A stretch of 64,000 nt of DNA, from positions 32,001 through 96,000 of IMG/VR virus record IMGVR_UViG_3300037418_002743; one strand, given 5' to 3'. Shown here one piece after another: positions 37,084-64,000 of the stretch. A program made the translations under genes and the position numbers. The notes below the pieces were generated by a model. It saw only the letters and a program-made list of their open reading frames with translations. It had not been told where the DNA came from and made no database searches. Every line of letters begins with the position of its first letter. Positions within the stretch are counted from its first letter, which is position 1. Origin of the DNA: a virus.

Positions 37084-37224
37084 GTGGCACGGAACGGCAC
37101 GGCGGCACGGACACGGACTCCAGGAGGGTGCCGGCACTGCTCTGCACGGCCCTGACCACCGGAAACGGGTGTGTTCCATCCGTTCCGTGCCACTGTTCCG
37201 TGCCGGCACAGTGGCCACCGTGCA
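37084..37224. repeat. GGCACGG(A) direct/inverted repeat cluster; candidate clt (TraB recognition locus)
   Basis: Direct copies at 37086, 37096, 37104, 37112 and 37144; inverted at 37184, 37197 and 37217; 14-bp perfect IR at 37084-37097/37180-37193. Confidence 0.5.
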
Positions 37225-37267
37225 AGTTTCCCCTTGTACTTACCGCGTGACGCGGTATCTTTAAGTC

Positions 37268-37570
37268 ATGAGCAACGACACCGCCACCGCCGCCCCGATC
37301 GCCACCGCCTCCGGCTTCTACACCGTCGCCGTCAAGGGCCTCCGCGGCCGCAAGTGGTTCGACGCCGGCTGCGGCCGCTGCGGCGACCAGGCCTTCGTCC
37401 AGTCGCTCTGCGACTCCGTCGCCGCCGACCACCCCGAGCTGCGATTCCAGGTCATGGACCCCAAGGGCCTCACCTACGCCCCCGACAAGTACCGCCCCTG
37501 GGCCGCCGCCTACGGCACCGAGAAGGACGACGACGTCAACGTCGACGAGCTCTCCGACGCCGAGCTCTGA
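37268..37570 (+). CDS. Leaderless stand-alone cassette gene
   Basis: TTGTAC-TTACCGCGTGACGCGG-TATCTT-TAAGTC-ATG; terminator hairpin at 37578-37608. Confidence 0.7.
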   Translation: MSNDTATAAPIATASGFYTVAVKGLRGRKWFDAGCGRCGDQAFVQSLCDSVAADHPELRFQVMDPKGLTYAPDKYRPWAAAYGTEKDDDVNVDELSDAEL

Positions 37571-37577
37571 CAGCAAA

Positions 37578-37608
37578 GGGCCCCGCCCGGCAGCGCCGGA
37601 CGGGGCCC
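37578..37608. terminator. Bidirectional hairpin terminator between the cassette gene and traB
   Basis: GGGCCCCGCCCGGC...GCCGGACGGGGCCC inverted repeat. Confidence 0.55.
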
Positions 37609-37621
37609 GCGGGCGTCAGGG

Positions 37622-39967
37622 TCAGGCGGCCCCGCGGGAGAGCCGAGCCGCCGCCGCCCGGAGGTCCGCGACCAGGAACCCGCGGAGGCGCTGCCCGCCG
37701 GCCCGGCGCGGCTCCGTCGGTCGGAGGTTCGCGTCGAGCGCGGAGAGGTCCCGGCCGAGCTGCTCGGCCGCCCGCCGCTTCGCCTCCGGCTCCGCGTCCC
37801 GGTCCACCCGCCCGATCACCTCCGCCAGCCGCTGCGTCGCCACCCACTCCGCCGGCGCGCCCGGGCGGCCGAGGGCCAGCATCACGATGTCGAGCGGCTC
37901 CGGCAGGGGCGGGTGACCCGGGCGGCCGGCGTGCTGCCGCATCGCCTCGACGAGCCGCCGCCCGGCCGCCTCGATCCCCGACGTGTCGGGAGCCGGGAGC
38001 ATCCCACCCGGCGCGGGTGCGTCGGATCCGCCCTGGTCACCCGGTGCGCCCGGGTCCTCGCCCAGCAGCTCCGCCCACAGGCGGGCGTCGTCGTCCCACC
38101 CGGGTGGAAGGTCCGCGGGCGGGAGGTCCGGGTGCGGGTCACCCGCCTCCGCGGCCGGGTGGGCACCCGCCGGCTCCACCCGCTCCGGGGCGGGCGGGTC
38201 ACCCGCCGGCGGGCGGGTGGGCTCCGGCGTGGGCTCCGGGCGGCCGCCCGGGTGGTCGTTGCTCATCGGCCACTCCAGTCCGTGGAGACGCGCCGCCTCG
38301 ACGAGCTCGCGGTGGCGCCGGGGGTTCCAACGGTCAGCGTAGGTCCGGAGGTCCTTGGTGACATCCGGGTCAAGCCCGAAGCGCCACTGGGCGTTCCGGG
38401 CGGCGACGAGGGGGATCTCGTCGTCGAGGAGGCTCAGGGCCTTGCCGCGCATGCCGCGCTCGTCCGGCTCCCCGGTCGTCACATAGAACTGCTTGTTCCG
38501 CAGCTTGCTGGCGTCCGGGCGGCCGGGGAGCCCGGCGAGGACCTTGTCCGCGTCGTCCCGGCGCTTCGTGTAGAGCGCGATCCCGATATCGGTGTTGCGC
38601 TGCATCCCGGAGCCCGCGGCCCCGAAGGAGGAGAAGAGCTGGTCCTGGTTGGCGATCACGACGTTGACCAGCGCGGTGCGGCCGAGCGCCTTGATCTCCG
38701 CGACCATCTCCGAGGCGGTGAGCATCCGCCCGTCAACGGGCCACTTCTTCGTGGTGCCCAGGACCTTCGACGCCTCGTCCACGATCACCGTGAGCATGCC
38801 GCGGCCCGGCTCGGCCTTCCGGGCGCCCGACGTCGGGGTCCGCTGGTTGCACAGCTTCGCGTAGAGCAGCGCGTCCGCGAGCGCGGCGAGCGCCTCGTCG
38901 AGGGACTCCCCGCCGACCCGGTCGACGGCCGGGCGGTCCACCTCTCCGCGGAGCCACGGGAGCACCCAACCCCAGGCGAGCTTGACCAGCTTCTCCGTGC
39001 CGACCAGCCACACCTCCCCGGCCTTGGACGCGGTGAGGCGGGCGATCAGGACCGCGAGGAGCACACCCTTGCCGGAGCCGGTCTTGCCGACGATGTCCAG
39101 GTGCCGGGCGCCCTCGTCGGGGTGGCACAGCTGCAGCTCGATCGGCCGGTCGTCCTCGTAGCGGCCGATGAGCATCCGGGCGTCAGCGTCGGTCGGCTCG
39201 TGATCCCAGACGAACGGGATCGGGCCCTCGTGCACCCGCTTCACGGTGAAGTGCAGGAGGAACTCCCCCATGTTGCGGCCGCGCTCCGGCACCACGTCCT
39301 GGTCCTCGAGGTCGATCCCGCGCGTCTCCTCGAACTGCATCGCCGCCTCCGTGGCGATCGCCGGGACGTCGCCGAGGAAGCCGCCGTAGGTGAGCAGCTT
39401 CTTCCCCTCGTGCCGGACCGGGCGGAGGTGCACGGTCTCGACGCCGCCCGAGGGCGAGGTGCTCACCCGGGAGACGCGGACATCGGTGACCTGCGCGGCC
39501 GTGAGGATCCCCGGGTACGGGCCGACGTCGCCGATCGGCTGCTCCGCCCCCGCCGGCGCAGGCCCGCCCGCCGTCGTCTCCGCGGCGGCCGCGACGCGCG
39601 GCGCGGCGAGCCCGAGGAGGTAGTACCAGGACCCGAACACGCCGAACCAGACGAGCAGCCACGGCGCGAGCGGGAGCGGCGTCGGGGAGGCGATGAGCAT
39701 CCAGAACCCGGCCGTGATGCCGGCGAGGCCGGCGCACCAGGAGGCGCCGCCGGTGAAGGCCCGCCCGTAGTCCCGGGCGGGGAAGAGCAGCCGGGCGCCG
39801 AGCGCGCCGAACCCGCCGACCGCGAGCCCGATCACGACGAAGGCCCACCCCTGCAGGGTGGGCACCGAGGCGGCGATGTAGGCGGCGACGGGATAGATCA
39901 GCGGGTAGGCCCACCAGCCCTCCGGCCGTCGGAACGGCCGGAGGGCTGCGGGCTGGCTGGTGCTCAC
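37622..39967 (-). CDS. traB: TraB-like FtsK/SpoIIIE conjugative DNA translocase
   Basis: N-terminal TM helices, Walker A HLDIVGKTGSGKG, Walker B LTVIVDEA, Pro-rich linker, C-terminal wHTH (...GQRLRGFLVADL). Confidence 0.8.
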   Translation of the reverse strand: MSTSQPAALRPFRRPEGWWAYPLIYPVAAYIAASVPTLQGWAFVVIGLAVGGFGALGARLLFPARDYGRAFTGGASWCAGLAGITAGFWMLIASPTPLPLAPWLLVWFGVFGSWYYLLGLAAPRVAAAAETTAGGPAPAGAEQPIGDVGPYPGILTAAQVTDVRVSRVSTSPSGGVETVHLRPVRHEGKKLLTYGGFLGDVPAIATEAAMQFEETRGIDLEDQDVVPERGRNMGEFLLHFTVKRVHEGPIPFVWDHEPTDADARMLIGRYEDDRPIELQLCHPDEGARHLDIVGKTGSGKGVLLAVLIARLTASKAGEVWLVGTEKLVKLAWGWVLPWLRGEVDRPAVDRVGGESLDEALAALADALLYAKLCNQRTPTSGARKAEPGRGMLTVIVDEASKVLGTTKKWPVDGRMLTASEMVAEIKALGRTALVNVVIANQDQLFSSFGAAGSGMQRNTDIGIALYTKRRDDADKVLAGLPGRPDASKLRNKQFYVTTGEPDERGMRGKALSLLDDEIPLVAARNAQWRFGLDPDVTKDLRTYADRWNPRRHRELVEAARLHGLEWPMSNDHPGGRPEPTPEPTRPPAGDPPAPERVEPAGAHPAAEAGDPHPDLPPADLPPGWDDDARLWAELLGEDPGAPGDQGGSDAPAPGGMLPAPDTSGIEAAGRRLVEAMRQHAGRPGHPPLPEPLDIVMLALGRPGAPAEWVATQRLAEVIGRVDRDAEPEAKRRAAEQLGRDLSALDANLRPTEPRRAGGQRLRGFLVADLRAAAARLSRGAA

Positions 39968-40010
39968 GGGCGGCTCTCCCAGGGGAAGTGGGCGGGCGAA
40001 GGCAGAGACG

Positions 40011-41936
40011 TCAGGCGACGTCCTGGTTGGCGCCCCAGTCGAGGGAGCGGGCGCGCGGGTCGGTCTCCTGCATGCGGGCCAGGTCGTCGTTGTGGATCGC
40101 GTCGATCCCCGCGGAGACCTCCTCGAGCGACTCGACGGGCGCCTTCACGAAGTTGGCGATCTCGCGGAGCAGGTCCTCCGCGCCGGCCTTGAAGAGCACG
40201 GACTCCACGGACTTGTCGGCGATGGTGGCGAACCCCTCCGCGAGGGCCTCGAAGAGCGCGGGCGCCTCGCCGATGAGCAGCTTCACCTTCATAAACGACG
40301 GGTCGTCGTCGTTGTTGGTCGGCTGCCAGTTCGCGACGGCGTTGCGCCACTCCTCGATCACGGAGTCGAAGGTGCCCATGGTCGTGTTCCTTCCTGCGGG
40401 GAGAGCCCCGGCCGGTCGGCCGGGCGCGGTGGTCGGGATGAGGGACGGGAGGGCCGGGAGCTTCGGCAGCGCCTTCGGCGGCACGGGCTCCGGGCGGGGA
40501 CGGCGGTGCCGGACCCACCAGCGGCGGCCGTGGGCCCGCCGGATCCGCTGCCAGCGCCACAGGGCCCGGGCGGTGCGGATCGGCCGCGAGCGGAGCGCAC
40601 GGCGCCCGAGAGCGGTGCCGGCGACCCGGCGGGCGGCTCCGCGGGCGACCCGGCCAACCGCTCGGGCGGCGGGGCCGGCGAGCCGGCGGGCGGCGACCGC
40701 GGCGCGGGTGCGATTCGCGGCGTGCGCGATCCGGGCGGCCCGGGCCCCGAAGACGGCGCCCTGCCGGGCGGCCGCCCGGGCGGCCTTCCCGACCGCCCGC
40801 CCGGCCGCGGAGCCGCGGAGCGCGCGGGTGCGGACGAGGCCCCGCCGGTAGGCACGGCGGGCCCGGGCGACGAGCCCGGCGCGGCGGGCGCCCTGCCGCC
40901 CACCCGGGCGGACACCCGGGCGGGTGGAGGCCTTCGGGCCCGGGCGCCCACCCGGGCGGGCGGACGGGTGACCAGGGCGAACTCCGGCACCCGGGCGGCC
41001 GCCCGCCCGGCCGGAGAAGAGCCCGCGGACCTTCCGCGCACCCGCCTTCACCCGGGAGCCGGCCGAGCGGCCGGAGCGGGTGCCGGGACGGGTAGAGCCG
41101 CCCCCGGTGCCGCCGGTGGAGCGGGTGCCGCCCGCCTTGCCGCCCGGGCGGTGCGTGCCGCCGGCGCCGCGGGAGCGGCCGCCGAAGAGCCCGCGCCGCC
41201 CGCCGCCGGCGGTCCCGCCCGAGCGGCCGGCGCCGCCGAAGAGGCTCCGCCGGCCGCCCGCGGTTCCGCCCTTCCCATGCCCGCCGGCGGTCGCGGACCG
41301 GCGGGACCGAGAGGACTTCGAGGAGCCCCGAGACGGGGCCGAGATGCCGCCGGAGCGCGCCGCTGCGGCTCGGGGCCGGGCAGCAGCGGGCGAGGGCCGG
41401 CGGAGGCGGGAGAGGCCGGGCAGACCGCTCGCGCGGCGACCCCCTCCGCTCACACCGCCGGCCCTCGACCCGGCCGCCCGGCCCTTGGCACCCAGACCGT
41501 CCGACCGGCCGCTCGATCGCGGCCGGGTCGGACGGCCCGCCCGGGTGCCCCCACCGGCCGCGCGGGATCCGGCGCGAGACGGCCGCAGCCGCCCCAGCAG
41601 GCCGGAAAGTCCCGCGGACCCCGGACGGACGCGAGGAGAGGCAGGACGGGAGGGAATACCCCGCCCCCTCGCGCGTCCGCCATCTTCTCCCCCACCCCGA
41701 AACCGGTGCAGGGCGTAGCCACCCCCTGCGATCGCGGTCGGGACCGTGTAGCCGAGCCACCCGAAGGCCTGACCTGCGGTCACGACCCCGGCGACGGAGA
41801 TCAGCGCGCCGAGCGCGAGGACGGGGCTGGGCATCCGTCGGGGCTCGTCGGCCGTCCGACGGGAGAGGTCCCGGGCGGGACGCTCCGGCTCCGTCGCCTC
41901 CGCCTCCGGCGGGGCCGGGGTCTCGGGGGTCGTCAC
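40011..41936 (-). CDS. TraB-associated protein: TM pair, long Arg/Gly-rich region, acidic helical C-domain
   Basis: GTG at 41936; in-frame internal start MGTFDS at 40379 with RBS GGAAGGA. Confidence 0.6.
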   Translation of the reverse strand: MTTPETPAPPEAEATEPERPARDLSRRTADEPRRMPSPVLALGALISVAGVVTAGQAFGWLGYTVPTAIAGGGYALHRFRGGGEDGGRARGRGIPSRPASPRVRPGSAGLSGLLGRLRPSRAGSRAAGGGTRAGRPTRPRSSGRSDGLGAKGRAAGSRAGGVSGGGRRASGLPGLSRLRRPSPAAARPRAAAARSGGISAPSRGSSKSSRSRRSATAGGHGKGGTAGGRRSLFGGAGRSGGTAGGGRRGLFGGRSRGAGGTHRPGGKAGGTRSTGGTGGGSTRPGTRSGRSAGSRVKAGARKVRGLFSGRAGGRPGAGVRPGHPSARPGGRPGPKASTRPGVRPGGRQGARRAGLVARARRAYRRGLVRTRALRGSAAGRAVGKAARAAARQGAVFGARAARIAHAANRTRAAVAARRLAGPAARAVGRVARGAARRVAGTALGRRALRSRPIRTARALWRWQRIRRAHGRRWWVRHRRPRPEPVPPKALPKLPALPSLIPTTAPGRPAGALPAGRNTTMGTFDSVIEEWRNAVANWQPTNNDDDPSFMKVKLLIGEAPALFEALAEGFATIADKSVESVLFKAGAEDLLREIANFVKAPVESLEEVSAGIDAIHNDDLARMQETDPRARSLDWGANQDVA

Positions 41937-42154
41937 CGGAAGGTCCCGGCCACGCCGCCCATCGCGCCGCGGACGCCGGCCTCGAGACCGGAGGCTCCGG
42001 AGGCGGCGATGGTGTGCACCACCGCGGCCGCGGAGCCGCCGAGGAAGACCCCGAAGAGGATCCCCCACATCAGGACGAGCCCGTGCCGGTGACCGCGCCG
42101 CCACGAGAACCAGGCCAGGAGGCCGAAGATCAACACGAGGGGGATGCCGAACAT
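41933..42154 (-). CDS. Small membrane protein (Spd-like) of the transfer operon
   Basis: MFGIPLVLIFGLLAWFSW...LVLMWGILFGVFLG. Confidence 0.6.
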   Translation of the reverse strand: MFGIPLVLIFGLLAWFSWRRGHRHGLVLMWGILFGVFLGGSAAAVVHTIAASGASGLEAGVRGAMGGVAGTFR

Positions 42155-42522
42155 CAGACGCTTGCCTTCCGGTTGGGCCGTCCGCGCCGCGTGCCAGGGA
42201 TGGCCTCCGCGGAGTACGGCGGGGGGAAGAGCGGCAGGAGGTACGCCTGCCGGAGCACGGCGCAGAGGGCGAGGATCGGCTCCGCGGGCTCGAACCACTC
42301 CGAGTCGAGGCGGTACGCGGCGAACTGCATGTGGCGGGCCTGCTCGAGCTCGCGGCCGCCGGGCTCGACGGCGTGCCAGACCTCGGCGCGAACCCCGCTC
42401 ATCCGCGGGCGGAACAGCTTGGTCGTGCCGATCTTGATGCGGTCCCCGACGCCGACGTAGTAGACGACGGGTTGATGGTTGGACTGGCTCTCAATGCCGA
42501 GACCCACAGCCAGGTCGGACAA
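42154..42522 (-). CDS. GIY-YIG (T5orf172/MUG113-like) domain protein
   Basis: VVYYV...IKIGTT...R...EPGGRELEQARHMQFAAYRL.SEWF. Confidence 0.75.
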   Translation of the reverse strand: MSDLAVGLGIESQSNHQPVVYYVGVGDRIKIGTTKLFRPRMSGVRAEVWHAVEPGGRELEQARHMQFAAYRLDSEWFEPAEPILALCAVLRQAYLLPLFPPPYSAEAIPGTRRGRPNRKASV

Positions 42523-42752
42523 GCCGCTGACCTCCTGCTCGCTCTAGCTCCTGGGAGGGATGGACGGCCCCAGCATGCGCGCTCCGGTGCTTATATGCAA
42601 CTCTACGATGCATGCGCTAAGGTCCAGAACGTCGGGCCCGGCCCTCACCTTCCCCGGGGGCCGAGCCCGCCGTATGCACGCGGGACTGCCTATATGCACG
42701 CCTCGGTGGGACACTGCGGGAGCCCTGCAGGCCCACCGGGAGGGGAAGCCCG

Positions 42753-43010
42753 ATGATCAGGAAGATCGAGATCGAGACGATGAGCACGCTCGCCGGCACG
42801 GCCGACTGCTCCGACCGCTACGAGTGCCCCGCGGTGCTCGCGCTGTCGGACCGGCCGGACGTCTACCACCTGGTGGTGAAGGCGGACTCGATCGTCACCG
42901 ACGCCGAGGAGCTCGCCGCGCTCCGTGCGCAGCGCAAGCTCGCCGACGACGAGATCGTGGTGACCCAGGACCGGCGCGTGATCGACGCACTGCGAGGAGG
43001 TGGAAGCTGA
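42753..43010 (+). CDS. Small CxxxxxCP protein (DUF397-like partner)
   Basis: DCSDRYECPAVL...YHLVVK; first gene of the DUF6879/XRE operon. Confidence 0.6.
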   Translation: MIRKIEIETMSTLAGTADCSDRYECPAVLALSDRPDVYHLVVKADSIVTDAEELAALRAQRKLADDEIVVTQDRRVIDALRGGGS

Positions 43011-43576
43011 TGCCGCAGCTGACCGGCCGCGAGATGGCCGAGTTCATCGAGGCGCACTACACCTCCCCCGGGGACAACCTCTTCCGGATGGAGCGTCTCC
43101 CCATCTACGCGGGGAACGCCGCCCAGACGGCGCGCTGGCTCACCGGAGCCGCGGAGCCGGACTGGGAGGTCAAGCAGGGCTGGCTCGACGCTCTCCGGGA
43201 GGACCGAGAGCGCGGGCTGCGGGCGCAGCGCGTGCGTGTCTTCACTCCGGGGATGACGGACGACGAGAGGGCCGCATGCGCCTTCGGGTACGCCTACAAC
43301 GGCCGGTACGAGGAGATCAGGGTGATCCACCGCGGCGAGCACCCGCCGGTGGACATCCTGGATCACGACTACTGGCTCATCACGCCTGCCCGCGGGCAGG
43401 TCGAGGTCCTGCGGATGCACTACGCGGACGACGGGGCCTTCCTCGGCGCGGACGTGGTGCCGCGTGACGGACACGAGCCGTACCTGCGGGAGAGCCGGCT
43501 GGCCTGGGCGATTGCGGAGGACTTCGCGCCGTGGTGGGAGCGGCACACCGAGCTGCACGAGCGGCTGGCGGCCTGA
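43010..43576 (+). CDS. DUF6879 family protein
   Basis: FRMERLPIY...RVRVF...GEHPP...DYWLI...MHYADDGAFLG. Confidence 0.8.
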   Translation: MPQLTGREMAEFIEAHYTSPGDNLFRMERLPIYAGNAAQTARWLTGAAEPDWEVKQGWLDALREDRERGLRAQRVRVFTPGMTDDERAACAFGYAYNGRYEEIRVIHRGEHPPVDILDHDYWLITPARGQVEVLRMHYADDGAFLGADVVPRDGHEPYLRESRLAWAIAEDFAPWWERHTELHERLAA

Positions 43577-43580
43577 CCAC

Positions 43581-44393
43581 ATGCCTGCAAGGACGCGCCG
43601 GGTGCCGGGCGGCCGGGACGAACTGTCCCGGCTGCTCGTCACCCTCCGCGGCACCAAGACCCAGGGCGAGGCCGGCGCGCTGATCGGGGTCAACCAGTCC
43701 AGGATCTCCCGCGCGGAGTCCGGACGCGGCGGGCTCACCGCGGAGCAGGCCGACGCCTACGCCCAGGCGCTCGGCGCATCCCGGCGGGACCGCAACCGCC
43801 TTGTCCAGCTCGTAAAGACCTTCGAGGCCGGCAGCATCACGACCCGGACGACGCTGGTCCGCAAGGCTCCCGAGATCCAGGCCCGGATCGAGAAGCTCTA
43901 CCGCGAGTCGACCGCGATCCGCAGCTGGCAGCCCGAGATCATCCCGGGCGCCGCTCAGACGCGCGCCTACACGCTGGCCGTGGTCGCCCCGATGACTCCC
44001 GGGCCGGCGTGGTGGACGCCGCGCCAGGCCCGGATCGACATGCTCGGCGCGCCCGGGCGCACCTTCCACCTCCTCGTCTCCGAGGCCGCTCTCCGCTGGG
44101 GCATCGGCTCCCGGGAGGTTATGGCGGAGCAGATGCAGCATCTGGACGCCGTGAGCCGCCTCCGCGGCGTCCGGCTCGGTGTCGTGCCGCTCGACGTCGT
44201 GCACCCGGTCGCGCCGCCCTCGGCGTTTGAGCTGTACGGCTCCCGGACCGCCTCCGTGGCGACGCTCTCCGGCACGGCCTTCGTTGAGGACCGGCCCGAC
44301 ATCGAGCGCTACGAGGAGGACTTCAACGCCCTCGCCGACCTCGCGCGGTACGACGACGACGCCCGCGCGCTCTTCGGATCGGTCTGGTCGTGA
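43581..44393 (+). CDS. XRE HTH plus DUF5753 transcription regulator
   Basis: TQGEAGALIGVNQSRISRAESG; IPGAAQTRAY, LVSEAALRW, VMAEQMQHL. Confidence 0.85.
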   Translation: MPARTRRVPGGRDELSRLLVTLRGTKTQGEAGALIGVNQSRISRAESGRGGLTAEQADAYAQALGASRRDRNRLVQLVKTFEAGSITTRTTLVRKAPEIQARIEKLYRESTAIRSWQPEIIPGAAQTRAYTLAVVAPMTPGPAWWTPRQARIDMLGAPGRTFHLLVSEAALRWGIGSREVMAEQMQHLDAVSRLRGVRLGVVPLDVVHPVAPPSAFELYGSRTASVATLSGTAFVEDRPDIERYEEDFNALADLARYDDDARALFGSVWS

Positions 44394-44401
44394 ACGACGA
44401 A

Positions 44402-44435
44402 AGCGCCCCCTCCCGCGGGTGCGGGAGGGGGCGCT
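44402..44435. terminator. Bidirectional hairpin terminator
   Basis: AGCGCCCCCTCCCGC-GGGT-GCGGGAGGGGGCGCT perfect inverted repeat. Confidence 0.7.
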
Positions 44436-44445
44436 GGGCGGGCGG

Positions 44446-44766: not shown

Positions 44767-44824
44767 GTCAGTTAAGCTACCGCGTGTTACGGTAAGCACA
44801 AGGCCAGTTGACGAGGGAGTTCGA

Positions 44825-45685: not shown

Positions 45686-45694
45686 GCGCGCCCC

Positions 45695-46010: not shown

Positions 46011-46079
46011 GCCCAAGGTCACCTTGAGCCTCACCCCGGTACCGTTCGGCAGCACCGAAGCCACCCTCCGGGAGTCACC

Positions 46080-47508: not shown

Positions 47509-47509
47509 C

Positions 47510-55787: not shown

Positions 55788-55871
55788 GTGTGCTTCCTCC
55801 TCAGGGGTGCCCGCACGGCAGCGCGCCCCCGTGACGGATCACGAGGGCGCGCTGGCGGGAAGGGGTTGGGG

Positions 55872-58289
55872 TCAGCCGGAGAGCGACTGGATCTCGATGC
55901 CGATCATCGAGGCCTTCTGCCCGGTCGGGGACGACAGGCCGAAGGTGTAGGTGCCGGGCGTCGACGCGGGCTGGTAGGCGTACCAGCCGGTGTAGCCGGA
56001 CACGTACTGGTGGCCCGCCTCGACGGTGCCGGTGCCGCGGTAGTTCGGCGTGCCCTGCTTGGTATTCCAGTCCGAGGCGCACCAGGCGATGACGGACGCG
56101 CCGCCCTCGGTCGTGATCGACTGCGAGACGCTGGTGTTGCTCTGGCTGTACCCGAGGGCCGGGGTGGCGTCGAGCTGGGCGTTCGCCCAGCGCATCACTC
56201 CGATGCCGTGGGAGGCGCCGGAGCCGCCGAAGGTCACCGAGACCGTCATCGAGGCGGGCGGGGTGTTCGGCACGACGGCCGTCCACATCCGGACCGGGTC
56301 GTTGAACGAGGCGGTGAGGCTCACCCGCGAGTTCCAGGTGAGCCCGCCGCCGGAGACGCCGGTGACCTGGCAGGGCGAGTCTCCGGAGGTGCCCCACACG
56401 ACGAGGACCTCCCCGGCGGCCGGGGAGAACGAGGTCGTGGTGATCGTCGAGAGGTCGGAGTTGTTGGTGAAGGGGTCGTAGAAGCCGACGAGCTGCGGCA
56501 GCGAGTGCACCACCGCGGTCCCGCCCAGAGAGCCGGCCCCGGCGAGGGTCGCGACCTCGTACATGGAGTTGTCCGGGGAGCCGGAGAGCGCGCCGGCCCC
56601 GGCGAGCTGCGCGGAGTGCACCACCGCCGAGTAGCTGAGCGCGCCCTGCAGGGAGCCCGCGCCGAGCATCGCCGTGGGCCCGTACTTCGTGAGCGTGCCG
56701 GCGAGGGCGCCGGCACCGGAGAGCAGCGCCGAGGACCAGGACGCGAAGGCGCCGGAGAGCGCGCCGGCGCCGCGGAGGAGAGCCGAGCTCCAGGAGGCGA
56801 AGGCCCCGGAGAGCGCGCCGGAACCGATGAGGGTCGCGTTGCCCTGCAGGATGACGTTCGCGATCAGCCCGGCGGGCTTCGCGGCGAGCACCGCGGCCTT
56901 GACCTGTGCGAGCGACACCGACAGCGCCTGATAGGTGCCGTACTGGCTGGCGAAGCTCGAGTAGCTCGGGAACGAGACCGCGACATCCGCGTAGGTCCGC
57001 GCGCTCACCTGGTTGTCGAAGACCCGGACGGTGATCGTGTAGGCGTCGCCGTCCCGCTCGGTGATCGTCGCGGTCTGGCCCACCTTGAGGTACTTGTTCG
57101 CGGCCGCCTGGATCGCGGCGAGGGTGCCGCGGGCGAACCCGCCTTCCCCGGTGAGCTGGGCACGCTGCTGGGCGTCGGGGAGCCCGGGGTCGACGGGGAC
57201 ACCGACGAACTGCCCGAGCCAGGGCAGGACGTACGTCGGGGCGCGCGTCGGGTCGAGGACCTGGGACCAGCCGGGGTCACCGGCCGGGGAGTCCCGACAC
57301 AGGTCATCGAGGGTCTGGAGCATCTGCCCGGCCGCGGCGTCGACGTACGTGCGGAGCGGGTAGCCCGCCGCGTCGTCGCCGGCGTTGATCGGCCACAGCT
57401 CGTTGTAGAGCGTGAGCCCGGCCTTCGTCGGCGGCTGGGGCTGGAACGGAGGCGGCGGGGGCGGCGCCTCCGTGGCAGGCGCGGGCGGGGTCCCGGCGCC
57501 CGGGTAGCCGAGCATCGTGCCGGAGCCCTGCAGGGAGATCGAGGGCGGGGCGGCCGACTTGAGCACCGCGGACCCGGACAGGGAGCCGGAGCCCTGCAGG
57601 GTCGCGGCGGCGAGGGTCGTGACGGTCTTCGAGCCGCCGGTGTCGTCGGTGGTCGTGGTGACCACGGCGACGAGGACCGCGATCGCGTACGAGGTCGACG
57701 GGAAGTTGAGCCGCGCGGTGGGCTGCAGAGTGTCCGACGTGTTCGTGTCGAACAGCGTCATGTCGTACGCGGCGTTGGTCACGTACGTGACGCCGGGGGT
57801 CGGGTTGCTCGGCGCGGAGGCGTCGCCGGTGCCGAGGCCATGCCCGAAGTACAGCTCGCCGTCGATCTGCGGAGAGAGCGACGGGAAGGTCAGCGTCGAG
57901 CTGAACGACGTGGTCGTGATGCCGGCCCAGTCGTCGAGCTGCCAGGCCGTCGCGGAGCCGAGGCCGGCGGTGAACTCCTGGGCGTCGAGCTCGACGTAGG
58001 TGCCGGAGACGGAGGAGTCGAAGGTGACGACGATCGTGTCGGAGCCGATGCTCGACACCGCGGCGCCCCAGATCTCCAGGTTGTCGTGATGCCCGACCGG
58101 GTTGAACGGTCCGGCGAGGCGGAGCCAGCCGCCCGCGGCACGGTTGGAGGTCACGGCGGTGACCTGGGCCCCGTTGGTCGCCTGCACGGACAGCAGCACG
58201 AGGTTCCCGACCGCGTGCGTGGTGATCGAGCGGCGGGTGACCCCGTAGGCCGCGACGCTCTGCAGAGATCCGACCGCGCTGATACCCAC
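55872..58289 (-). CDS. Baseplate wedge/tail protein (P2 gpI-like core) with appended beta domains
   Basis: LDPTRAP..VLPWLGQFVGV...RGTLAAI...AAKPAG; follows baseplate J. Confidence 0.75.
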   Translation of the reverse strand: MGISAVGSLQSVAAYGVTRRSITTHAVGNLVLLSVQATNGAQVTAVTSNRAAGGWLRLAGPFNPVGHHDNLEIWGAAVSSIGSDTIVVTFDSSVSGTYVELDAQEFTAGLGSATAWQLDDWAGITTTSFSSTLTFPSLSPQIDGELYFGHGLGTGDASAPSNPTPGVTYVTNAAYDMTLFDTNTSDTLQPTARLNFPSTSYAIAVLVAVVTTTTDDTGGSKTVTTLAAATLQGSGSLSGSAVLKSAAPPSISLQGSGTMLGYPGAGTPPAPATEAPPPPPPFQPQPPTKAGLTLYNELWPINAGDDAAGYPLRTYVDAAAGQMLQTLDDLCRDSPAGDPGWSQVLDPTRAPTYVLPWLGQFVGVPVDPGLPDAQQRAQLTGEGGFARGTLAAIQAAANKYLKVGQTATITERDGDAYTITVRVFDNQVSARTYADVAVSFPSYSSFASQYGTYQALSVSLAQVKAAVLAAKPAGLIANVILQGNATLIGSGALSGAFASWSSALLRGAGALSGAFASWSSALLSGAGALAGTLTKYGPTAMLGAGSLQGALSYSAVVHSAQLAGAGALSGSPDNSMYEVATLAGAGSLGGTAVVHSLPQLVGFYDPFTNNSDLSTITTTSFSPAAGEVLVVWGTSGDSPCQVTGVSGGGLTWNSRVSLTASFNDPVRMWTAVVPNTPPASMTVSVTFGGSGASHGIGVMRWANAQLDATPALGYSQSNTSVSQSITTEGGASVIAWCASDWNTKQGTPNYRGTGTVEAGHQYVSGYTGWYAYQPASTPGTYTFGLSSPTGQKASMIGIEIQSLSG

Positions 58290-58345
58290 GCGCGCCCCAC
58301 CTCGCCCTCAGGTTGCTGGTGTGGAGGGGCGCGCGCCCCGCGTAC

Positions 58346-59521
58346 TCAGGTGACGGTGATCGTGATCGAGCCGGGCTGGGTGAGCGGGAAGGCCCCGGTG
58401 AGGTTGCCGTCCGCGGCCGCCATCGCGCCCGCATTCACCCCGATCTGGAGGTTCGACACGTACGAGACGTTCGGGATGTTGTCGAGGATCCCGGCGATCG
58501 TCAGGTACCGGACGACGGTCTGGTTCGTCCAGGCCGGAGCGGGGCCGCCCCAGTTCGCCGGGGAGAGGTAGGACTGCAGCGCGGTCGTCGCGGCCGATGA
58601 CACGGTCGCGGTGTTCGCCCCGCTCACCGCCTTGAGCGTCGCGGTGATGTTGACCGTGTTGTAGTTCGGCGCCGCGACCCCGACAACGAAGTTCGCCTCC
58701 CGCAGCGCCTGCAGGGAGGTGGCGATCGCGGACATCTGTCCGGAAGAGAGCGCCGCCCCGTTGGCGTCGACGACGGACACCCCGACGGTCCGGGAGTTCC
58801 CCGACGTGCCGTTGCTGGTGTTGTAGCCGTCGATCGCCGTCGCCCGGGCCACGCCGGACTGGTTGCGGGCGAGGACCGCGAAGTCGTTCGGGAGGATCGG
58901 GCGCGGGCTCATCAGCTGGAGCTCGGCCGCGAGCCGGTCGAGGTACGCGCTCTGGCTCTCCGCGTCCGTGCCGCCGGCGGAGGTCGTGGTGGACACGACG
59001 GAGGCGACGAAGGACAGGTTGCTCACCAGGGACAGCGCGCGCGGGGCGAGCCCGTTCGCGTCCGCCCCGGCGGTGATCGCGGTCAGGACGACCGCGCCGG
59101 TGCCCGTCGCGTTCGACCCGGCCGGGACGGTGATGTCCGCGGTGGTCTGGAACAGGACGTTCGTCGTCGACGCGGCCGGGTAGGACACGACCGTGCCCGC
59201 CGGGATGAGGTGCCCCTGCGTGTCGGTGAGCGTGAAGGTCGCGTTCATCGAGGCCGCGGATCCGGTGAGCGGCGGCAGGTTCATCAGCTGTGAGCCGTAG
59301 TACTGGAAGATCGAGAGCGGGACCTGCGCGGCCACCTGCGCGGTCTCCGCGCACATCCGGGCGAAGGCCCGGATCATCCACACCTCGAGGTGGCCCTCTC
59401 GGGCGACCCAGCCGGGCTGCTGCTGCGCGAGGTAGGTGAGCGCGTTGGTCGCCAGAGTGTCGGCGTCCGTCGTGACCGGCAGGGCGATGTAGCCGGCGGA
59501 CCCGGAAACGGGGCTGGTCAC
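58346..59521 (-). CDS. Baseplate J/gp47 protein
   Basis: IPAGTVV...AITAGADANG...GGTDAESQSAYLDRL. Confidence 0.88.
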   Translation of the reverse strand: MTSPVSGSAGYIALPVTTDADTLATNALTYLAQQQPGWVAREGHLEVWMIRAFARMCAETAQVAAQVPLSIFQYYGSQLMNLPPLTGSAASMNATFTLTDTQGHLIPAGTVVSYPAASTTNVLFQTTADITVPAGSNATGTGAVVLTAITAGADANGLAPRALSLVSNLSFVASVVSTTTSAGGTDAESQSAYLDRLAAELQLMSPRPILPNDFAVLARNQSGVARATAIDGYNTSNGTSGNSRTVGVSVVDANGAALSSGQMSAIATSLQALREANFVVGVAAPNYNTVNITATLKAVSGANTATVSSAATTALQSYLSPANWGGPAPAWTNQTVVRYLTIAGILDNIPNVSYVSNLQIGVNAGAMAAADGNLTGAFPLTQPGSITITVT

Positions 59522-59832
59522 GGGCGCACCTCGTCAGGGATCTTGGCGATGATCTGGGCGGAGCCGTCCGGGTTGACGGTCACCGTGAGCCGGGTCCCGT
59601 TCGCCCGCGTCTCCCACTTGGCGAGGGCCTGGGTGATGTCGGCGACCGCCCGGGACTCGCTGGAGAAGGTCGGGTCGGGGATCCCGTAGTCCATCTGCTC
59701 GATCCGCGTCCCGGTCGGCGTGGAGAGCAGGACCTGCACGCACTGCGAGATCTCCGCGACGGAGTCCTGCGGGACGGTGGCGGCCGACCCGGTCGGGTCA
59801 TAGCGGAACGGGATCGCGAAGTGCTCGGGCAT
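59518..59832 (-). CDS. GPW/gp25 baseplate wedge protein
   Basis: QCVQVLLSTPTGTRIEQMDYGI...ALAKWETR. Confidence 0.85.
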   Translation of the reverse strand: MPEHFAIPFRYDPTGSAATVPQDSVAEISQCVQVLLSTPTGTRIEQMDYGIPDPTFSSESRAVADITQALAKWETRANGTRLTVTVNPDGSAQIIAKIPDEVRP

Positions 59833-59844
59833 GAGTCCCTCCGG

Positions 59845-60225
59845 TCAGTGGCCGTGGCCGTGGCCGAAACCGACCGGGGTCGTGCCGTCAACCGGAGCCG
59901 GGAACGGGATCTCGATGCCCAGCCGCGGCTGCGGCTTGAGCTCGTCCGGGGTGGTGCCGAGGCGGCTGGCGAGCTGGGCGTGTGCGTCGTCGTATCCGTA
60001 CCCGGGGGTGTCGAGGACGATCCACACGCTCCCGCAGCGACCACAGAGGATGTGCGGCATCTGCGAGGTGTCCCGAGCGCGGAGGACGTTGGTGTGCCGC
60101 CCGTCCGCGGGGTTCATCTGGTTCGTCCCGCTGACGACGTTCGACATGTCGAACATGTGCCCCTGCTGCTCGCACGCCTCCCCGAGGACAGCACGACGCA
60201 TCTCGTCGGTGATCTCGATCGGCAT
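59845..60225 (-). CDS. Hypothetical Cys/His protein in the baseplate cluster
   Basis: CEQQGH...CGRC. Confidence 0.6.
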   Translation of the reverse strand: MPIEITDEMRRAVLGEACEQQGHMFDMSNVVSGTNQMNPADGRHTNVLRARDTSQMPHILCGRCGSVWIVLDTPGYGYDDAHAQLASRLGTTPDELKPQPRLGIEIPFPAPVDGTTPVGFGHGHGH

Positions 60226-60233
60226 GAGTCCCC

Positions 60234-61592
60234 CTATGTCCAGATCAAGTAGTTGACCCCGATCGAGGCCTGGCGGTTGTCAAAGCCGGACCCGGAGCCC
60301 ACGGAGTTCTCGTGGATGCCGTGGTTGTGCCCGCCGTTCCAGTTCATGTTGTGGTTGTGGTCGCCGGCTGCGTCCTGGCCGTACGGCAGCCCGGAGCCGG
60401 TCGGGATCGTGCCCGAGAAGTTGTGACCACCGTGAGAGCCGCCGAAGGCGATGAAGTGGTCGTGGTCGCCGACCCCGTCGATCGTCACGCCGTGGCTGTG
60501 TGCCGGCATGTTCGCCGTCGTCAGGATCCGGGTGTCCGCGCCGACGAGCGCACCGACCGCCTCACCGGTGGCGGCGACACCGCGCGGGACGCGGCCGCGG
60601 AAGTCCGGGAGCCCGAAGGTCGTCGTGCCGTCCCCGTTGGTGAACAGTCCGGTGACGACGAGGCTGTTGGACTGGACCCACGCCCAGAGGCCGGCGTAGG
60701 TGGTGCGGGAGACCGTAGCCCCGTTCAGGAGCAGGGTGTTCGGCTTCGCGGTCGTCCGGATCGTCATCTCGAGGTCGCCGGTGGGCTTGCGGTTCGGCGG
60801 CGTCCACGTCCCGGGGGAGCCGGCGACGGTGCAGATCCACAGCACCCCGGACTGGTCGACGACGTAGTCGCCGACGACGAACGCGCCCGTGGTCGGCGGC
60901 CCGGCCGTGGTCGCCCCCACGTACCGCGACGCGGCGGTGGCGCCGGTGAGACCGGCCCCCATGTAGTTGGCCCGCCAGGTGCCCGGGGAGCCGCCGACGG
61001 TGCACACCCAGGTCGCGCCGGTGCGGTCGACGACGAAGTCCCCGACGGCAAAGGTTCCCGCCGTTGGAGCGCCGGAGGTGGTGCCGCCGACGTAGCGGGT
61101 CGCCCCGGTCGCCCCCGTGAGCCCCGCGCCCCAGTAGTTCGCCTCCCAGGTACCCGGGGAGCCGGCGACGGAGCACACCCAGGTGGCGCCCGTGCTGGAG
61201 TCGACGCAGAAGTCTCCGGCGGCGTAGGTGCCCGACGTGGGCGCACCCCCGGTGGTGCCGCCGACGAACCGGGCCGGCGTCGTCGTCCCGGTCGTGCCGG
61301 TCGCCCCGAAGAGCGTGCCCGGCTGGTCCTGCCAGGCGACAATCCACGGCTGGGTGAGGTCCGTGCCGACGAACTCGACCAGGCACGGCGTCCCGGGCGG
61401 CGGGTAGCCGGTGCCAGGCCAGGAGTACTTCGCCGGGCCAAAGGCCCAGTCCGGGTGGAAGTCCGGGATCTTCACCCGCACCCCGGAGGAGTCCGCCGAG
61501 ATCACGATCGCGGCCTGTGCACCGGGCATCGCGTCGGTGGCGTCCTGCTGCTTGTTGATCGCGTAGCCGAGATCCTTGGACACGTCACCCAC
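60234..61592 (-). CDS. Baseplate spike (gpV-like OB fold) fused to fibre repeats and a tail-collar domain
   Basis: VRVKIPD...PPPGTPCLVEF...PWIV; three RF/YVGG repeats; LNGATVSRTTYAGL...GDGTTTFGLPDFRGR; HxH motifs. Confidence 0.75.
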   Translation of the reverse strand: MGDVSKDLGYAINKQQDATDAMPGAQAAIVISADSSGVRVKIPDFHPDWAFGPAKYSWPGTGYPPPGTPCLVEFVGTDLTQPWIVAWQDQPGTLFGATGTTGTTTPARFVGGTTGGAPTSGTYAAGDFCVDSSTGATWVCSVAGSPGTWEANYWGAGLTGATGATRYVGGTTSGAPTAGTFAVGDFVVDRTGATWVCTVGGSPGTWRANYMGAGLTGATAASRYVGATTAGPPTTGAFVVGDYVVDQSGVLWICTVAGSPGTWTPPNRKPTGDLEMTIRTTAKPNTLLLNGATVSRTTYAGLWAWVQSNSLVVTGLFTNGDGTTTFGLPDFRGRVPRGVAATGEAVGALVGADTRILTTANMPAHSHGVTIDGVGDHDHFIAFGGSHGGHNFSGTIPTGSGLPYGQDAAGDHNHNMNWNGGHNHGIHENSVGSGSGFDNRQASIGVNYLIWT

Positions 61593-62514
61593 CGCTGCCT
61601 CCCGTCCCGCTCGAGGTGGACGAAGACGACCCGGAGGTGCTGGTGGTGTCCTGCTGCACCGGCTCCGGGAGCTCGGGCTGCGCCTGGATGAGCGTGACGC
61701 CGGTCGACTTGAGGAAGAGGCTGCGGCTGATCGCGGAGACCAGCCAGTCGCCCGTGGCGGCCGCGAGGTGCTGCACCGCGACGTGAGCGCCGATCCCGGC
61801 GAGCCAGGTGTCGGAGTAGGTCGTGACCTTCGCCGTCGCGACCGGCTTGCCGACGTCGAAGTCGAAGTCGATCGTGTCGACCGCGTCGGTGTACTCCGCG
61901 ATCTGCATCGCCGGGGCCTGCTTGAGCAGCCAGGAGTCCGGTCCGAACCACACGTTCACCCCGTCGGAGAAGCACCGGTACTGCACGTCTCCGGCGATGC
62001 GGGTCAGGCAGGCCCAGGTGTCTTCGTCGGGGGTCTGGGAGGTGCCGCGGGTGAGCGGCACGGTCGCGGTGGGCTCCCCGGTCGCGACCTTCGCGGGCAC
62101 CCCGGCGGCGCGGAGCAGCTGCGCGGCGAACTGCTCCCGGGTGATGACCCCGGCCGCGGCCGCGAGCTGCCCCTTCTGCTTGCGGAGCTTCGCGATCACG
62201 GAGTCCTCGTAGGTGACCGCGAGCATGTCGCCGCTCTTGGACACCTTCACCATCGTGAAGCGCCGCGGCGGGTTCGCGCCCGTGTCGATCGTCATCGCCT
62301 GGTTGAGCAGCGGCGACGAGAGCAGCTTGCGCTCCGGGTCGACGAAGGTCAGCTTGAGCGTGGACGCCTGGTCGATCGCGAGGCTGATCTCGGCGTTGGA
62401 GAGCAGGTCGCCGGCGTACGAGGAGATCAGCTTCCCGTTGTCGGCGACGGTCATCATCTCGGCCCGGATGCCGTCGAGGGCCGGCGTGGTGGTCGCACCG
62501 AGCGGGGCGGTCAC
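61585..62514 (-). CDS. Baseplate hub (gpD/XkdQ-like)
   Basis: Lies between the LysM and spike genes; ASTLKLTF, EDTWACLTRIA and GDWLVSAISRS motifs. Confidence 0.7.
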   Translation of the reverse strand: MTAPLGATTTPALDGIRAEMMTVADNGKLISSYAGDLLSNAEISLAIDQASTLKLTFVDPERKLLSSPLLNQAMTIDTGANPPRRFTMVKVSKSGDMLAVTYEDSVIAKLRKQKGQLAAAAGVITREQFAAQLLRAAGVPAKVATGEPTATVPLTRGTSQTPDEDTWACLTRIAGDVQYRCFSDGVNVWFGPDSWLLKQAPAMQIAEYTDAVDTIDFDFDVGKPVATAKVTTYSDTWLAGIGAHVAVQHLAAATGDWLVSAISRSLFLKSTGVTLIQAQPELPEPVQQDTTSTSGSSSSTSSGTGGSGG

Positions 62515-63380
62515 GGCAGGAGGATCCGATCGTTCGGGTTCAGGCTGTTCGGGTCACGGAGCCCGTTGAGCGTCGCGATCAAGGACCACTTCCGGTAGTC
62601 GCCGAGCTCGCGGGCCGCGATGCGGGCGAGGGTGTCCCCGTCCCGCACGACGTAGGTCCGGGCCCCGACGAGCGTCGGGAGGATCTGGGCGAGCTGCGGG
62701 AGCGCGGAGTCGACCACGACCTGCGCGCCCGCGGCGTTGTTCGGGATGCTCGCGACGAAGGACGCCAGCTCCGAGGTGATCGACGAGGTGACGTCCGGAG
62801 AGGCGGAGGAGAGCAGGTTCGGCAGCTGCTCGAGGAGCGCGGCGAGCTGCGCGGGGATCTGCACGCCGGAGGCCCGGAGGATCCCGAGGATCGCCGCGGT
62901 CTGCGCGGCCAGCGTCGGGGAGCCCGGCACGGCCGTGGAGCCGGTGTACTCGATGAGCGTCAGGTCGAGGGCCTGCTGGATGAGCGCGCCGTCCCGCCGC
63001 CGGGTCTGGTCGTCCGACCAGTCGATCTGCTGCACCACCCAGCCGGTCACCCCGAACTGCGTGACGGGGCCGACGATCGAGAGGATCGGCGGCTGGTGCG
63101 TCGCGGTCGTCGGGTGCCGCCAGGTCTCCACGAGGGTGACGGAGTAGTCGATCGACTGGTCCCCGTCGGCGCCGTCGAGGATGAGCGGGAGCTTCATCTG
63201 CACGAGCTGGTCCTGCGTGAACTCCAGGAACGGCTTGCGCTTCGGGCGCGTGACGGGCGACCAGGCGTAGCCGCCGGAGGCGTACTGGGAGACCTGCGCC
63301 GCCCCAGCCATCCCGAACCCCACGGAGGGGCCGGGCGGCTGGGACGGGGTGATCCACAGGTCGGGAGTGGGCACGTGCAT
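62511..63380 (-). CDS. Tail tube initiator with C-terminal LysM domain
   Basis: RTYVVRDGDTLARIAARELGDYRKWSLIATLNGLRDPNSL. Confidence 0.85.
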   Translation of the reverse strand: MHVPTPDLWITPSQPPGPSVGFGMAGAAQVSQYASGGYAWSPVTRPKRKPFLEFTQDQLVQMKLPLILDGADGDQSIDYSVTLVETWRHPTTATHQPPILSIVGPVTQFGVTGWVVQQIDWSDDQTRRRDGALIQQALDLTLIEYTGSTAVPGSPTLAAQTAAILGILRASGVQIPAQLAALLEQLPNLLSSASPDVTSSITSELASFVASIPNNAAGAQVVVDSALPQLAQILPTLVGARTYVVRDGDTLARIAARELGDYRKWSLIATLNGLRDPNSLNPNDRILLP

Positions 63381-63393
63381 CACCTCTCGTGCG

Positions 63394-64000
63394 TCAGCGG
63401 CGGGCGATGGCGTCCGAGAGCCCCTGCATGGTGGCCTCGTAGACCGCATGCGGGTCCGACGCCTGGTGGATCACGACGGCGCCGGGCTGCACGATGACCT
63501 GCGTTCCGCCGAGGCTGCGACTGATCGTCGTGGTGTCCGAGGAGTTGATGACCGTCCCGTCGGAGGCGGGGACGAACAGCTCCGGACCGCGCTCCCCGAC
63601 GAGGTAGGGGAACCCGGTGGAGACGGGGCCGCCGTTCGCCCGCGCTCCCGCGATCGGGAGCGCGACGCCGCCGCCCGAGTACCAGCCATAGGTCTGCTCG
63701 TGCGCGAGCGCGCCCTCCGGGGACCCGTAGCGGGAGGCGATGTAGTTGAGACCGGCGGCGGTCTGCGCGGACGGGTCAGACGTCTTGCTCGCCCCGTACG
63801 CGCCCCAGGTGCCGTCGAGGAACTGGAACATGCCGTAGGCGGTCGACGTCGGGTTCTGGGCGTTGTTGTTGAAGCCCGACTCCCGCATGATCACGGCGTA
63901 GAGCGCATCCCACTGCGCTCCGGTCCAGCCGCGGGCGGCGGCCATCGCCTGGACGAGCCCGACGTTCCCTCCGGCCGCCGCCGGAGCGCCGGGGACGGCC
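63394..64000 (-). CDS. Tape measure protein C-terminus with lytic transglycosylase (SLT) domain; partial
   Basis: IMRESGFNNNAQNPTSTAYGMFQFL...YIASRYG; RANGGPV...VGERGPELFVP; frame is open to the window edge. Confidence 0.85.
   Translation of the reverse strand, partial: AVPGAPAAAGGNVGLVQAMAAARGWTGAQWDALYAVIMRESGFNNNAQNPTSTAYGMFQFLDGTWGAYGASKTSDPSAQTAAGLNYIASRYGSPEGALAHEQTYGWYSGGGVALPIAGARANGGPVSTGFPYLVGERGPELFVPASDGTVINSSDTTTISRSLGGTQVIVQPGAVVIHQASDPHAVYEATMQGLSDAIARR

Follow-up and report, generated by a model that had tools for sequence, protein, structure and literature searches.

A candidate phage-plasmid with a contractile tail carries a putative DNA pump from a separate FtsK-like clade

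The closest described systems come from plasmids of mycelial actinomycetes. TraB of pSVH1 (772 aa) comprises an N-terminal part of 130 aa, a translocase domain and a C-terminal domain that recognises clt (PMC4447253), and clt loci are arrays of 8-bp direct repeats, with the unit GACCCGGA in pSVH1 (PMC4447253, PMC5133688). Homologues of SpdB2 were noted on actinophages in 2015 (PMC4447253). A Streptomyces plasmid-phage, pZL12/phiZL12, has also been described (Zhong et al. 2010, J Bacteriol 192:3747, as cited in PMC3583192 and PMC4487206), and according to the account in PMC3583192 its conjugal transfer depends on a major tra gene as well as on two adjacent genes. A plasmid-phage with conjugal transfer is therefore already known from pZL12, and the idea itself is not new. 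Here we describe a 64,000-nt window (the whole stretch of DNA that was analysed; bases 32001-96000 of the single 105,275-bp IMG/VR virus record IMGVR_UViG_3300037418_002743) in which a module of ATPase operon, membrane-protein and partition genes lies next to the tail genes of a phage. Positions are those of the window unless contig coordinates are stated. Our best explanation is that a temperate phage with a contractile tail, from a high-GC mycelial actinomycete of soil or rhizosphere, is represented here by a near-complete genome that forms one replicon, is kept as a plasmid and carries a membrane pump for its own DNA. We put the probability of this explanation, taken as a whole with replicon, plasmid upkeep and pump together, at about 0.5.

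The central gene of the module encodes a 781-aa candidate translocase of double-stranded DNA (dsDNA). Its domains are ordered as an N-terminal transmembrane (TM) region, a beta-rich domain, a RecA-like ATPase domain, a Pro-rich linker and a C-terminal winged helix (residues 685-781). Hydrophobic helices at about residues 20-130, seen in the AlphaFold 2 model and in a hydropathy scan, are conserved across the family; the Walker A (GKTGSGKG) and Walker B (VIVDE) motifs are at residues 294 and 394. Foldseek comparison of the AlphaFold core with the PDB gave the FtsK motor with dsDNA (E 7e-8) and the coupling protein TcpA as top matches, followed by EccC. The C-terminal domain was modelled with a predicted local distance difference test score of 95 and the topology H-b-H-H-b-b-H. 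Its best matches were winged helices (Rex, MarR, Scc1), without exception in VIA, but scores were middling in both VIA (Z up to 5.9) and Foldseek (E 0.15 or worse); in the model this domain looks like a winged helix, a candidate for DNA recognition. Of 13 listed metagenome variant sites in the gene, 10 are third codon positions, which indicates purifying selection on the ATPase.

Searching with tblastn returned one weak plasmid match and two phages. A profile search of 1.8 billion representatives found 803 proteins at E<=1e-3 (139 at E<=1e-30), mostly of 650-900 aa and mostly metagenomic, and all those that bear a name are called 'hypothetical'. Viral and genome contigs were also searched with the ATPase, the A2 profile, ParA, a tail protein and P0022, which gave no usable relatives; one metagenome locus (L021) was recovered as a relative. 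A family hidden Markov model (HMM) built from 85 members matched, over the full length, proteins of four other phage or phage-like plasmid genomes: gp41 of PIS 136 (2e-215), an 809-aa protein of Mwe-JY05 (5e-205), a 737-aa protein of pAmyja1 (4e-108) and, on an S. albidoflavus plasmid that carries a terminase gene, a 712-aa protein (5e-88). With HMMER, the same HMM had no match to the Tra protein of pSLE1 (pZL12-type) or to E. coli FtsK. Profile alignment by hhalign scored pSLE1-type Tra at 97.2% (E 3.7e-11) and the motor of E. coli FtsK at 96.8% (E 2.3e-10), both across the ATPase core only; the TraB side of this comparison was covered by the mainstream pSLE1-type Tra family (167 PLSDB plasmids) alone. 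Judged by sequence, the ATPase therefore lies outside the mainstream Streptomyces Tra/TraB clade, in a separate uncharacterised clade equidistant from plasmid Tra and FtsK. It has the architecture of TraB but cannot be classed as TraB. An earlier note, made from the letters of the window, had called it a full-length TraB-like FtsK ATPase; the TM region, Walker motifs and winged helix hold, while membership of the mainstream TraB clade does not.

The ATPase gene ends an operon with stop/start overlaps that also holds g121, g120 and ORF641 (Table 1); these three are coupled by TGATG and GTGA. In ORF641, a TM hairpin at the N terminus is followed by roughly 400 aa rich in Arg, Gly and Ala, with a net charge of about +97, and then by a C-terminal domain of some 130 aa that is conserved. 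GC content in 40.5-41.9 kb is 80-85% and the reading frame is open from 41936. Readings of this stretch as non-coding or as a 157-aa gene (g119) were rejected, given the open frame and the long architecture in two relatives. We call the product a 641-aa membrane-anchored polycation because L021 and Mwe-JY05, whose pumps are 39% and 37% identical, respectively, show the same design directly upstream of the pump gene, again with a TM hairpin, about 400 Arg/Gly/Ala residues, a net charge of +90 to +97 and the conserved C-terminal domain. As far as these sequences go, an ORF641 partner upstream of the pump is a new and conserved feature, and we infer that it holds DNA at the pump. In Mwe-JY05 (PP395638.1, L005:7067-8725) the polycationic open reading frame (ORF) is annotated only as its last 203 aa plus an antisense ORF. 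That record is filed as a Microcystis phage; the 19-kb stretch that we fetched has 74% GC and actinophage-like genes.

A further putative membrane protein, g126, is encoded between the accessory genes and parA. Two of its segments pass the threshold of the hydropathy scan, and its sequence can be read as having as many as four hydrophobic stretches. Its C-terminal helix-turn-helix (HTH)-like domain comes from an Atlas structure lead; the Atlas scores for g126 (0.85 and 0.80) are below 0.9 and count as leads only. The protein resembles SpdB2/DUF2637 in architecture only.

Short repeats accompany the pump genes. In this element the 3' third of the pump gene contains eight copies of CACCCGC (37805-38213), out of 99 on the whole contig, and CACCCGGG occurs 17 times in 37.6-46.1 kb versus 1.4 expected, including a co-oriented cluster within ORF641. 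In L021, 7-8 tandem CCACCCGCT units directly follow the pump stop codon, and the CACCCGC heptamer is tandemly repeated there. The pump gene of pAmyja1 is followed directly by a CGGGGACG array. In PIS 136 and the S. albidoflavus plasmid, arrays of 8-mers are found at 2.5-3 kb from the pump gene, and the ORF641-like gene of Mwe-JY05 contains one. The placement of these arrays suggests that they are candidate clt-like recognition sites. Since the words of this element sit in coding DNA, the case is no more than suggestive.

The earlier note had also placed parA and a ribbon-helix-helix (RHH) partner beside the tail genes. ParA is well supported by its family matches (Table 1); the RHH of its partner is weak (PF01402, E 0.007, below threshold). 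In the 391 bp 5' of parA there are seven CCCGGGTG/CACCCGGG words, compared with a shuffle mean of 0.21 and a maximum of 3. Type Ib systems have their centromere upstream of a small ParA/RHH pair. What the element holds for plasmid partition is thus a ParA and upstream repeats, with a weakly matching partner. The same note reported no integrase, which is valid for the window only, because a tyrosine recombinase is encoded elsewhere on the contig (contig 14687-15679; PF00589, 1e-31, with a SAM-like N-domain), 48 kb to the left. At 94 nt upstream of the recombinase gene there is a full tRNA-Gln. Among solved structures the closest relatives of the recombinase are XerA and XerD (1e-21), which rank before phage integrases, and it may resolve multimers or integrate the element. 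Plasmids pAmyja1 and pSLE1 also carry tyrosine recombinases, and P1 keeps the tyrosine recombinase Cre. A plasmid lifestyle is plausible, given ParA with centromere-like repeats and relatives that are circular plasmids. Probably the DNA would be kept during lysogeny as a low-copy plasmid, with the type Ib-like ParA and its small RHH-like partner acting on the CCCGGGTG repeats upstream of parA and the Xer-like recombinase resolving multimers or, alternatively, integrating the element at tRNA-Gln.

The rest of the contig carries the genes of a tailed phage. Its virion set comprises TerL, portal, major capsid, adaptor, neck, sheath, tube and tape measure, and baseplate and lysis genes (Baseplate J, gp25, P2-I and a GH25 lysin) are also present, giving structural, packaging and lysis functions on one molecule. 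The contractile tail, baseplate and lysis genes named in the earlier note were borne out by Baseplate_J, gp25, Tail_P2_I and GH25 matches and by PHROG matches of sheath and tube. The capsid and terminase genes that one replicon should also carry were found: major capsid, portal and large terminase lie at the opposite contig end from the tail block, and tube, sheath, neck and adaptor genes lie just past the window edge (sheath, tube and tape measure by PHROG matches). The record is classed as 'linear' (no end repeats), CheckV completeness is 92%, and the contig has no host flanks. GC content is about 72% along the element, a value typical of actinomycetes. Near-identical sequence is present in at least four rhizosphere or soil metagenomes from separate studies, and the element is therefore uncultured; a 24-kb query had no megablast match in the phage and plasmid collections. 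A single minus-strand structural operon continues over the contig ends, and joining the ends creates a strong hairpin across the junction (-46.8 kcal/mol), which suggests that the ends are neighbours in a circular or concatemeric molecule. The 15-bp GC-rich hairpin is formed from L003:10216-10275 and L001:1-60, with a GGGGGTGGGGTG word beside it on each end; its role may be that of a terminator following the capsid gene or of a site linked to packaging. Immunity and replication genes had been placed on the other side of the module. RecT, YqaJ and an exonuclease are encoded on the contig; no repressor could be named among the contig genes, and no replication initiator was found among those scanned.

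Phage regulatory signals reach into the module. The palindrome TACCGCG-N3-CGCGGTA, with up to 4 mismatches, occurs 18 times versus 2.9 expected, and all copies are intergenic. Each unit is oriented with the downstream gene: TTGTAC or TTGACn, the palindrome, a TAtcTT-like hexamer and, about 7 nt on, ATGACGAAC. As read from the sequence, this is a -35 element, an operator that occupies the spacer, a -10 element and a leaderless start, and one such promoter-operator unit, in about 18 copies, runs many early genes. The motif had been reported at 37241 and 44778 inside the plasmid module. Both copies are real and lie in the module region; since they drive only g117 and g125, they bracket the module and do not drive the ATPase operon or parA. 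Phage regulatory cassettes are thus interleaved with the module. The module yielded no sigma-70 consensus promoter. Where the pump operon and the accessory cassette diverge, the intergenic region (42590-42705) has three repeats that contain TATGCA, a possible operator. Near the divergent promoter-operator pair 35255/35311, the 23-nt sequence CGGGAGGACTGCCGCGACTTCTG is present as an exact direct repeat at 35602-35624 and 36642-36664 (1040 nt apart).

For the pump we propose, tentatively and at slightly under even odds, that the g121-g120-ORF641-ATPase operon would build a membrane complex that transfers the phage-plasmid. A hexameric FtsK-fold ATPase would read CACCCGC or CACCCGGG words through its C-terminal winged helix and pump the double-stranded phage-plasmid across septal cross-walls or into a neighbouring hypha, while membrane-anchored, polycationic ORF641, and perhaps g126, would keep the DNA at the pore. 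On this basis we infer that the element may conjugate. By analogy, such a function would mirror TraB/clt/Spd and the tra locus of pZL12.

Several results weigh against this explanation. The ATPase scores 16.7 bits against PF01580 (FtsK_SpoIIIE; cut-off 24), an NCBIfam scan of it found nothing, and its sole sequence-profile match in the PDB is EccC of Thermomonospora (7.7e-9). By hhalign plasmid Tra is no nearer to its uncharacterised clade than chromosomal FtsK is. Since PIS 136 and Mwe-JY05 are recorded as phages, the purpose of the pump may be a purely phage one. The repeat words may merely mirror peptide repeats, as they encode Pro- or Arg/Gly-rich sequence. The earlier note's DUF2637 Spd-like gene, which is g126, did not survive: protein and six-frame scans with PF10935 (E up to 5 or 10) gave no match, and BLASTP similarity to the true DUF2637 proteins of pAmyja1 and PIS 136 was not significant. 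No GntR regulator of the TraR/KorA kil-kor kind was found among the module proteins with Pfam and NCBIfam. For the replicon itself, circularity is read from the sequence of the contig ends, no Rep-family initiator was found among the genes scanned (many genes were outside that scan), and the Xer-like recombinase with its adjacent full tRNA-Gln means that the phage might integrate.

Some of these results would fit an ordinary temperate phage whose FtsK-like pump serves segregation across closing septa and not transfer. As septa close in sporulation or vegetative growth, prophage-plasmid or replicating phage DNA would be cleared or pumped across them, leaving a copy in each compartment and spore, with the pump acting like chromosomal FtsK/SffA with ParA and possibly with the Xer-like recombinase. 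FtsK works with XerCD, and here ParA and a recombinase of the Xer type share the replicon; the pump family is as near to FtsK as to plasmid Tra in hhalign, FtsK_gamma is found on 10-26% of members in some related Atlas clusters, and pump homologues occur in isolated phages. However, about 55 kb separate the recombinase from the pump, and the pump is accompanied by a membrane polycation and by arrays of short repeats that are positioned as clt is. The two explanations also overlap, since TraB machinery of Streptomyces plasmids performs both transfer and intramycelial spread (PMC4447253). We regard segregation alone as unlikely. Less likely still is that the ATPase works in secretion, defence or exclusion and does not pump the element's own DNA, whether as an EccC-like exporter, a HerA-like defence protein or a superinfection exclusion system acting on incoming DNA. 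The EccC match above is the best in the profile search of the PDB, the Foldseek list includes EssC and HerA-Sir2, PHROG places the nearest family under 'moron/host takeover', and a variable accessory cassette adjoins the operon. Against this, the protein has one ATPase domain where EccC has three, its top structural matches are the dsDNA-bound FtsK motor and the conjugative coupling protein TcpA, and the C-terminal winged helix and polycationic neighbour point to a DNA substrate; no Sir2, NurA or type VII secretion partner genes were seen in Pfam scans. We consider such a role improbable.

A different objection is that the module is a separately integrated plasmid or actinomycete integrative and conjugative element (AICE), or an assembly chimera, in an unrelated phage contig. 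GC content climbs to 80% at 40-42 kb, gene orientation changes within the region, and part of it is exchangeable: in a contig from an independent soil sample (X3), 42160-44390 with the DUF6879/HTH_31-DUF5753 cassette is swapped for 1.68 kb of other DNA. Two other metagenome variants have a 344-nt segment in place of 37571-37618 (46 nt at the pump terminator), and we conclude that both sites are exchange hot spots. The high GC, however, is due to Arg/Gly/Ala-rich ORF641, which is conserved in relatives. The same 12.9-kb X3 contig joins 36766-42159 to 44391-49509 at about 98% identity and holds the ATPase, ORF641, g125, g126, parA, the parA partner and fibre genes; because it bridges the module and tail-fibre genes, the arrangement is neither a chimera nor an inserted AICE. 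A 73-kb Logan contig (X1) of the probable source run spans 36000-49688 and extends 59 kb further left. No att-type direct repeats flank the module, and Pfam-type scans found no integrase or Rep gene in it; of the hallmarks of an AICE (its own integrase, a replication gene and flanking att sites) none was present within 36-49 kb. Together with the phage promoter-operator cassettes inside the module and the pump homologues in four other phage or phage-like plasmid genomes, these results make separate origin or misassembly very improbable. They agree with the view of the earlier note that the module is a long-term part of the phage, and we conclude that it is an old, lineage-typical region of putative maintenance and transfer genes between early and tail genes.

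Table 1. Features of the module and of the tail region (window coordinates)
Feature	Position	Strand	Remarks
Early promoter-operator palindrome	37241-37257	+	Between TTGTAC (-35) and TAtcTT (-10); serves leaderless g117
g117, 100 aa	37268-37570	+	Convergent with ATPase gene
Hairpin terminator, 14 bp, GC-rich	37578-37608	-	End of ATPase operon
Candidate membrane-anchored FtsK-fold dsDNA translocase, 781 aa	37622-39967	-	
Heptamer CACCCGC/GCGGGTG, eight copies	37805-38219		In 3' third of ATPase gene; candidate clt-like repeats
ORF641, 641 aa	40011-41936	-	GTGA start overlaps g120 stop
Five co-oriented CACCCGGG words	40901-41056		Within ORF641; shuffle mean 0.075
g120, membrane protein, 73 aa	41933-42154	-	Translationally coupled on both sides
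g121, 117 aa	42154-42507	-	First gene of operon; weak T5orf172/GIY-YIG-like matches; phrog_8604
Variable accessory cassette	42753-44393	+	85-aa protein, DUF6879, XRE HTH_31+DUF5753 (WhiJ/Scr1-like) regulator
g125, 106 aa	44446-44794	-	With leaderless promoter-operator cassette 44778-44794
g126, putative membrane protein, 286 aa	44825-45685	+	N-terminal TM helices, coiled coil, Pro-rich linker, C-terminal HTH-like domain
Centromere-like array	45700-45925		Seven CCCGGGTG/CACCCGGG words within 45711-45886; upstream of parA
ParA-type partition ATPase	46080-46940	+	AAA_31 8e-29, phrog_164 7e-41
Candidate centromere-binding partner	46933-47508	+	PEP repeats, weak C-terminal RHH; overlaps parA
Repetitive protein, 1044 aa	48635-51769	-	Ala/Thr/Ser/Gly-rich
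GH25 endolysin	53558-54598	-	
Tail-fibre and baseplate block	54612-63383	-	
Fibre-like gene	54612-55787	-	
Tail_P2_I (P2 gpI-like)	55872-58289	-	
Baseplate J	58346-59521	-	Baseplate_J PF04865 1.5e-23
gp25/W	59518-59832	-	PF04965
Fibre/collar gene	60234-61583	-	
LysM protein	62511-63383	-	
Tape-measure gene (1359 aa), 3' part	63394-64000	-	Continues beyond window; tube and sheath next on contig

Between the module and the lysis genes, the 1044-aa protein has a 230-aa N-terminal domain followed by its repeats. Scans gave it no family match, and it is probably a fibre or surface protein. ORFs on the plus strand at 49026-51842 were rejected as genes and are shadow frames of this one: they have no matches, their composition is what an antisense reading gives, and the GC skew fits that of the tail genes on the minus strand. 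The X1 assembly breaks within the same gene (49688-50141). Left of the window, ARAGORN labels an 85-nt tRNA with anticodon CTA as tRNA-Pyl (L001:12318-12402, contig coordinates), which may be a phage-carried amber-suppressor-like tRNA. A 255-aa protein at L001:17065-17832 combines an Rpf-type 'Transglycosylase-like' domain (PF06737) with LysM, and the tape measure likewise ends with a transglycosylase-like part.

If the pump moves the DNA of the element, there would be three routes of inheritance: virions, plasmid partition and direct pumping from hypha to hypha or compartment to compartment. This would change how host range, spread and gene flow are modelled in soil actinomycetes, the main antibiotic producers. 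A broader and rather doubtful extension is that pumps of the PIS 136-gp41 type make up, with ORF641, an apparatus for DNA spreading that is specific to phages and independent of capsids, distinct from TraB/Spd and widespread in uncultured actinophages (the 803 representatives), and that moves phage or prophage-plasmid genomes through septa and between hyphae by recognising the short-repeat arrays of those genomes. With it, a whole class of phages that infect filamentous bacteria would have a second route of infection.

Phage-plasmids such as P1 and N15 (Pfeifer and Rocha, reviewed in PMC12282955) likewise combine a tailed-phage genome with plasmid partition. Those reviewed move as virions, and a dsDNA pump of the conjugation type is outside that picture except in actinomycetes. 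Compared with TraB/clt/Spd of pSVH1 and pIJ101 (PMC4447253, PMC5133688), the element shares a single membrane-anchored FtsK-like ATPase of about 775 aa, with the same domain order as pSVH1 TraB, coupled membrane-protein genes as in spd operons (PMC4447253), and short GC-rich direct repeats adjoining the pump gene whose words share the ACCCG core of GACCCGGA. However, outside the FtsK/HerA ATPase core the comparison revealed no specific kinship in sequence, module scans gave no TraR/KorA regulator or recognisable SpdB2/DUF2637, and the repeats are mostly within coding DNA.

The nearest relatives by pump sequence are PIS 136 (a Saccharomonospora phage whose gp41 is named 'FtsK/SpoIIIE protein'), Mwe-JY05 and pAmyja1, in which the same protein family is found at full length in phage or phage-like plasmid genomes with actinomycete hosts or actinomycete-like GC. 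Mwe-JY05 also has the ORF641 partner, and pAmyja1, a circular Amycolatopsis plasmid, shares capsid (57%), portal, TerL and tape measure. In contrast to this element, all three are without a sheath homologue, as are the five relatives searched in total, and a true DUF2637 gene, of which this element has no detectable counterpart, stands next to the pump of pAmyja1 and PIS 136.

Similar in overall plan are pZL12 and its syntenic relative pSLE1, which are also tailed-phage genomes of about 90-105 kb in mycelial actinomycetes with ParA-type partition, one or more tyrosine recombinases and a tra gene for an FtsK-like membrane protein of about 775 aa. The Tra protein of pSLE1 is likewise below the PF01580 threshold (16.4 bits) and has a C-terminal winged-helix match. 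It belongs, however, to the mainstream Streptomyces family and its gene stands beside a GntR regulator, which the S. albidoflavus plasmid also has, whereas the pump described here falls in another clade, with no HMMER cross-match and an hhalign match confined to the ATPase core. pSLE1 has no sheath homologue, while this element has a contractile tail with a P2-like baseplate, no GntR among its scanned module proteins and a polycationic ORF641 partner. What is new relative to the known kind is therefore the contractile tail, the separate uncharacterised pump clade, the ORF641 partner and a module in which no GntR regulator was found. Beyond pZL12, the case adds a contractile-tailed phage, a different and large pump family, a polycationic membrane partner and candidate recognition repeats.

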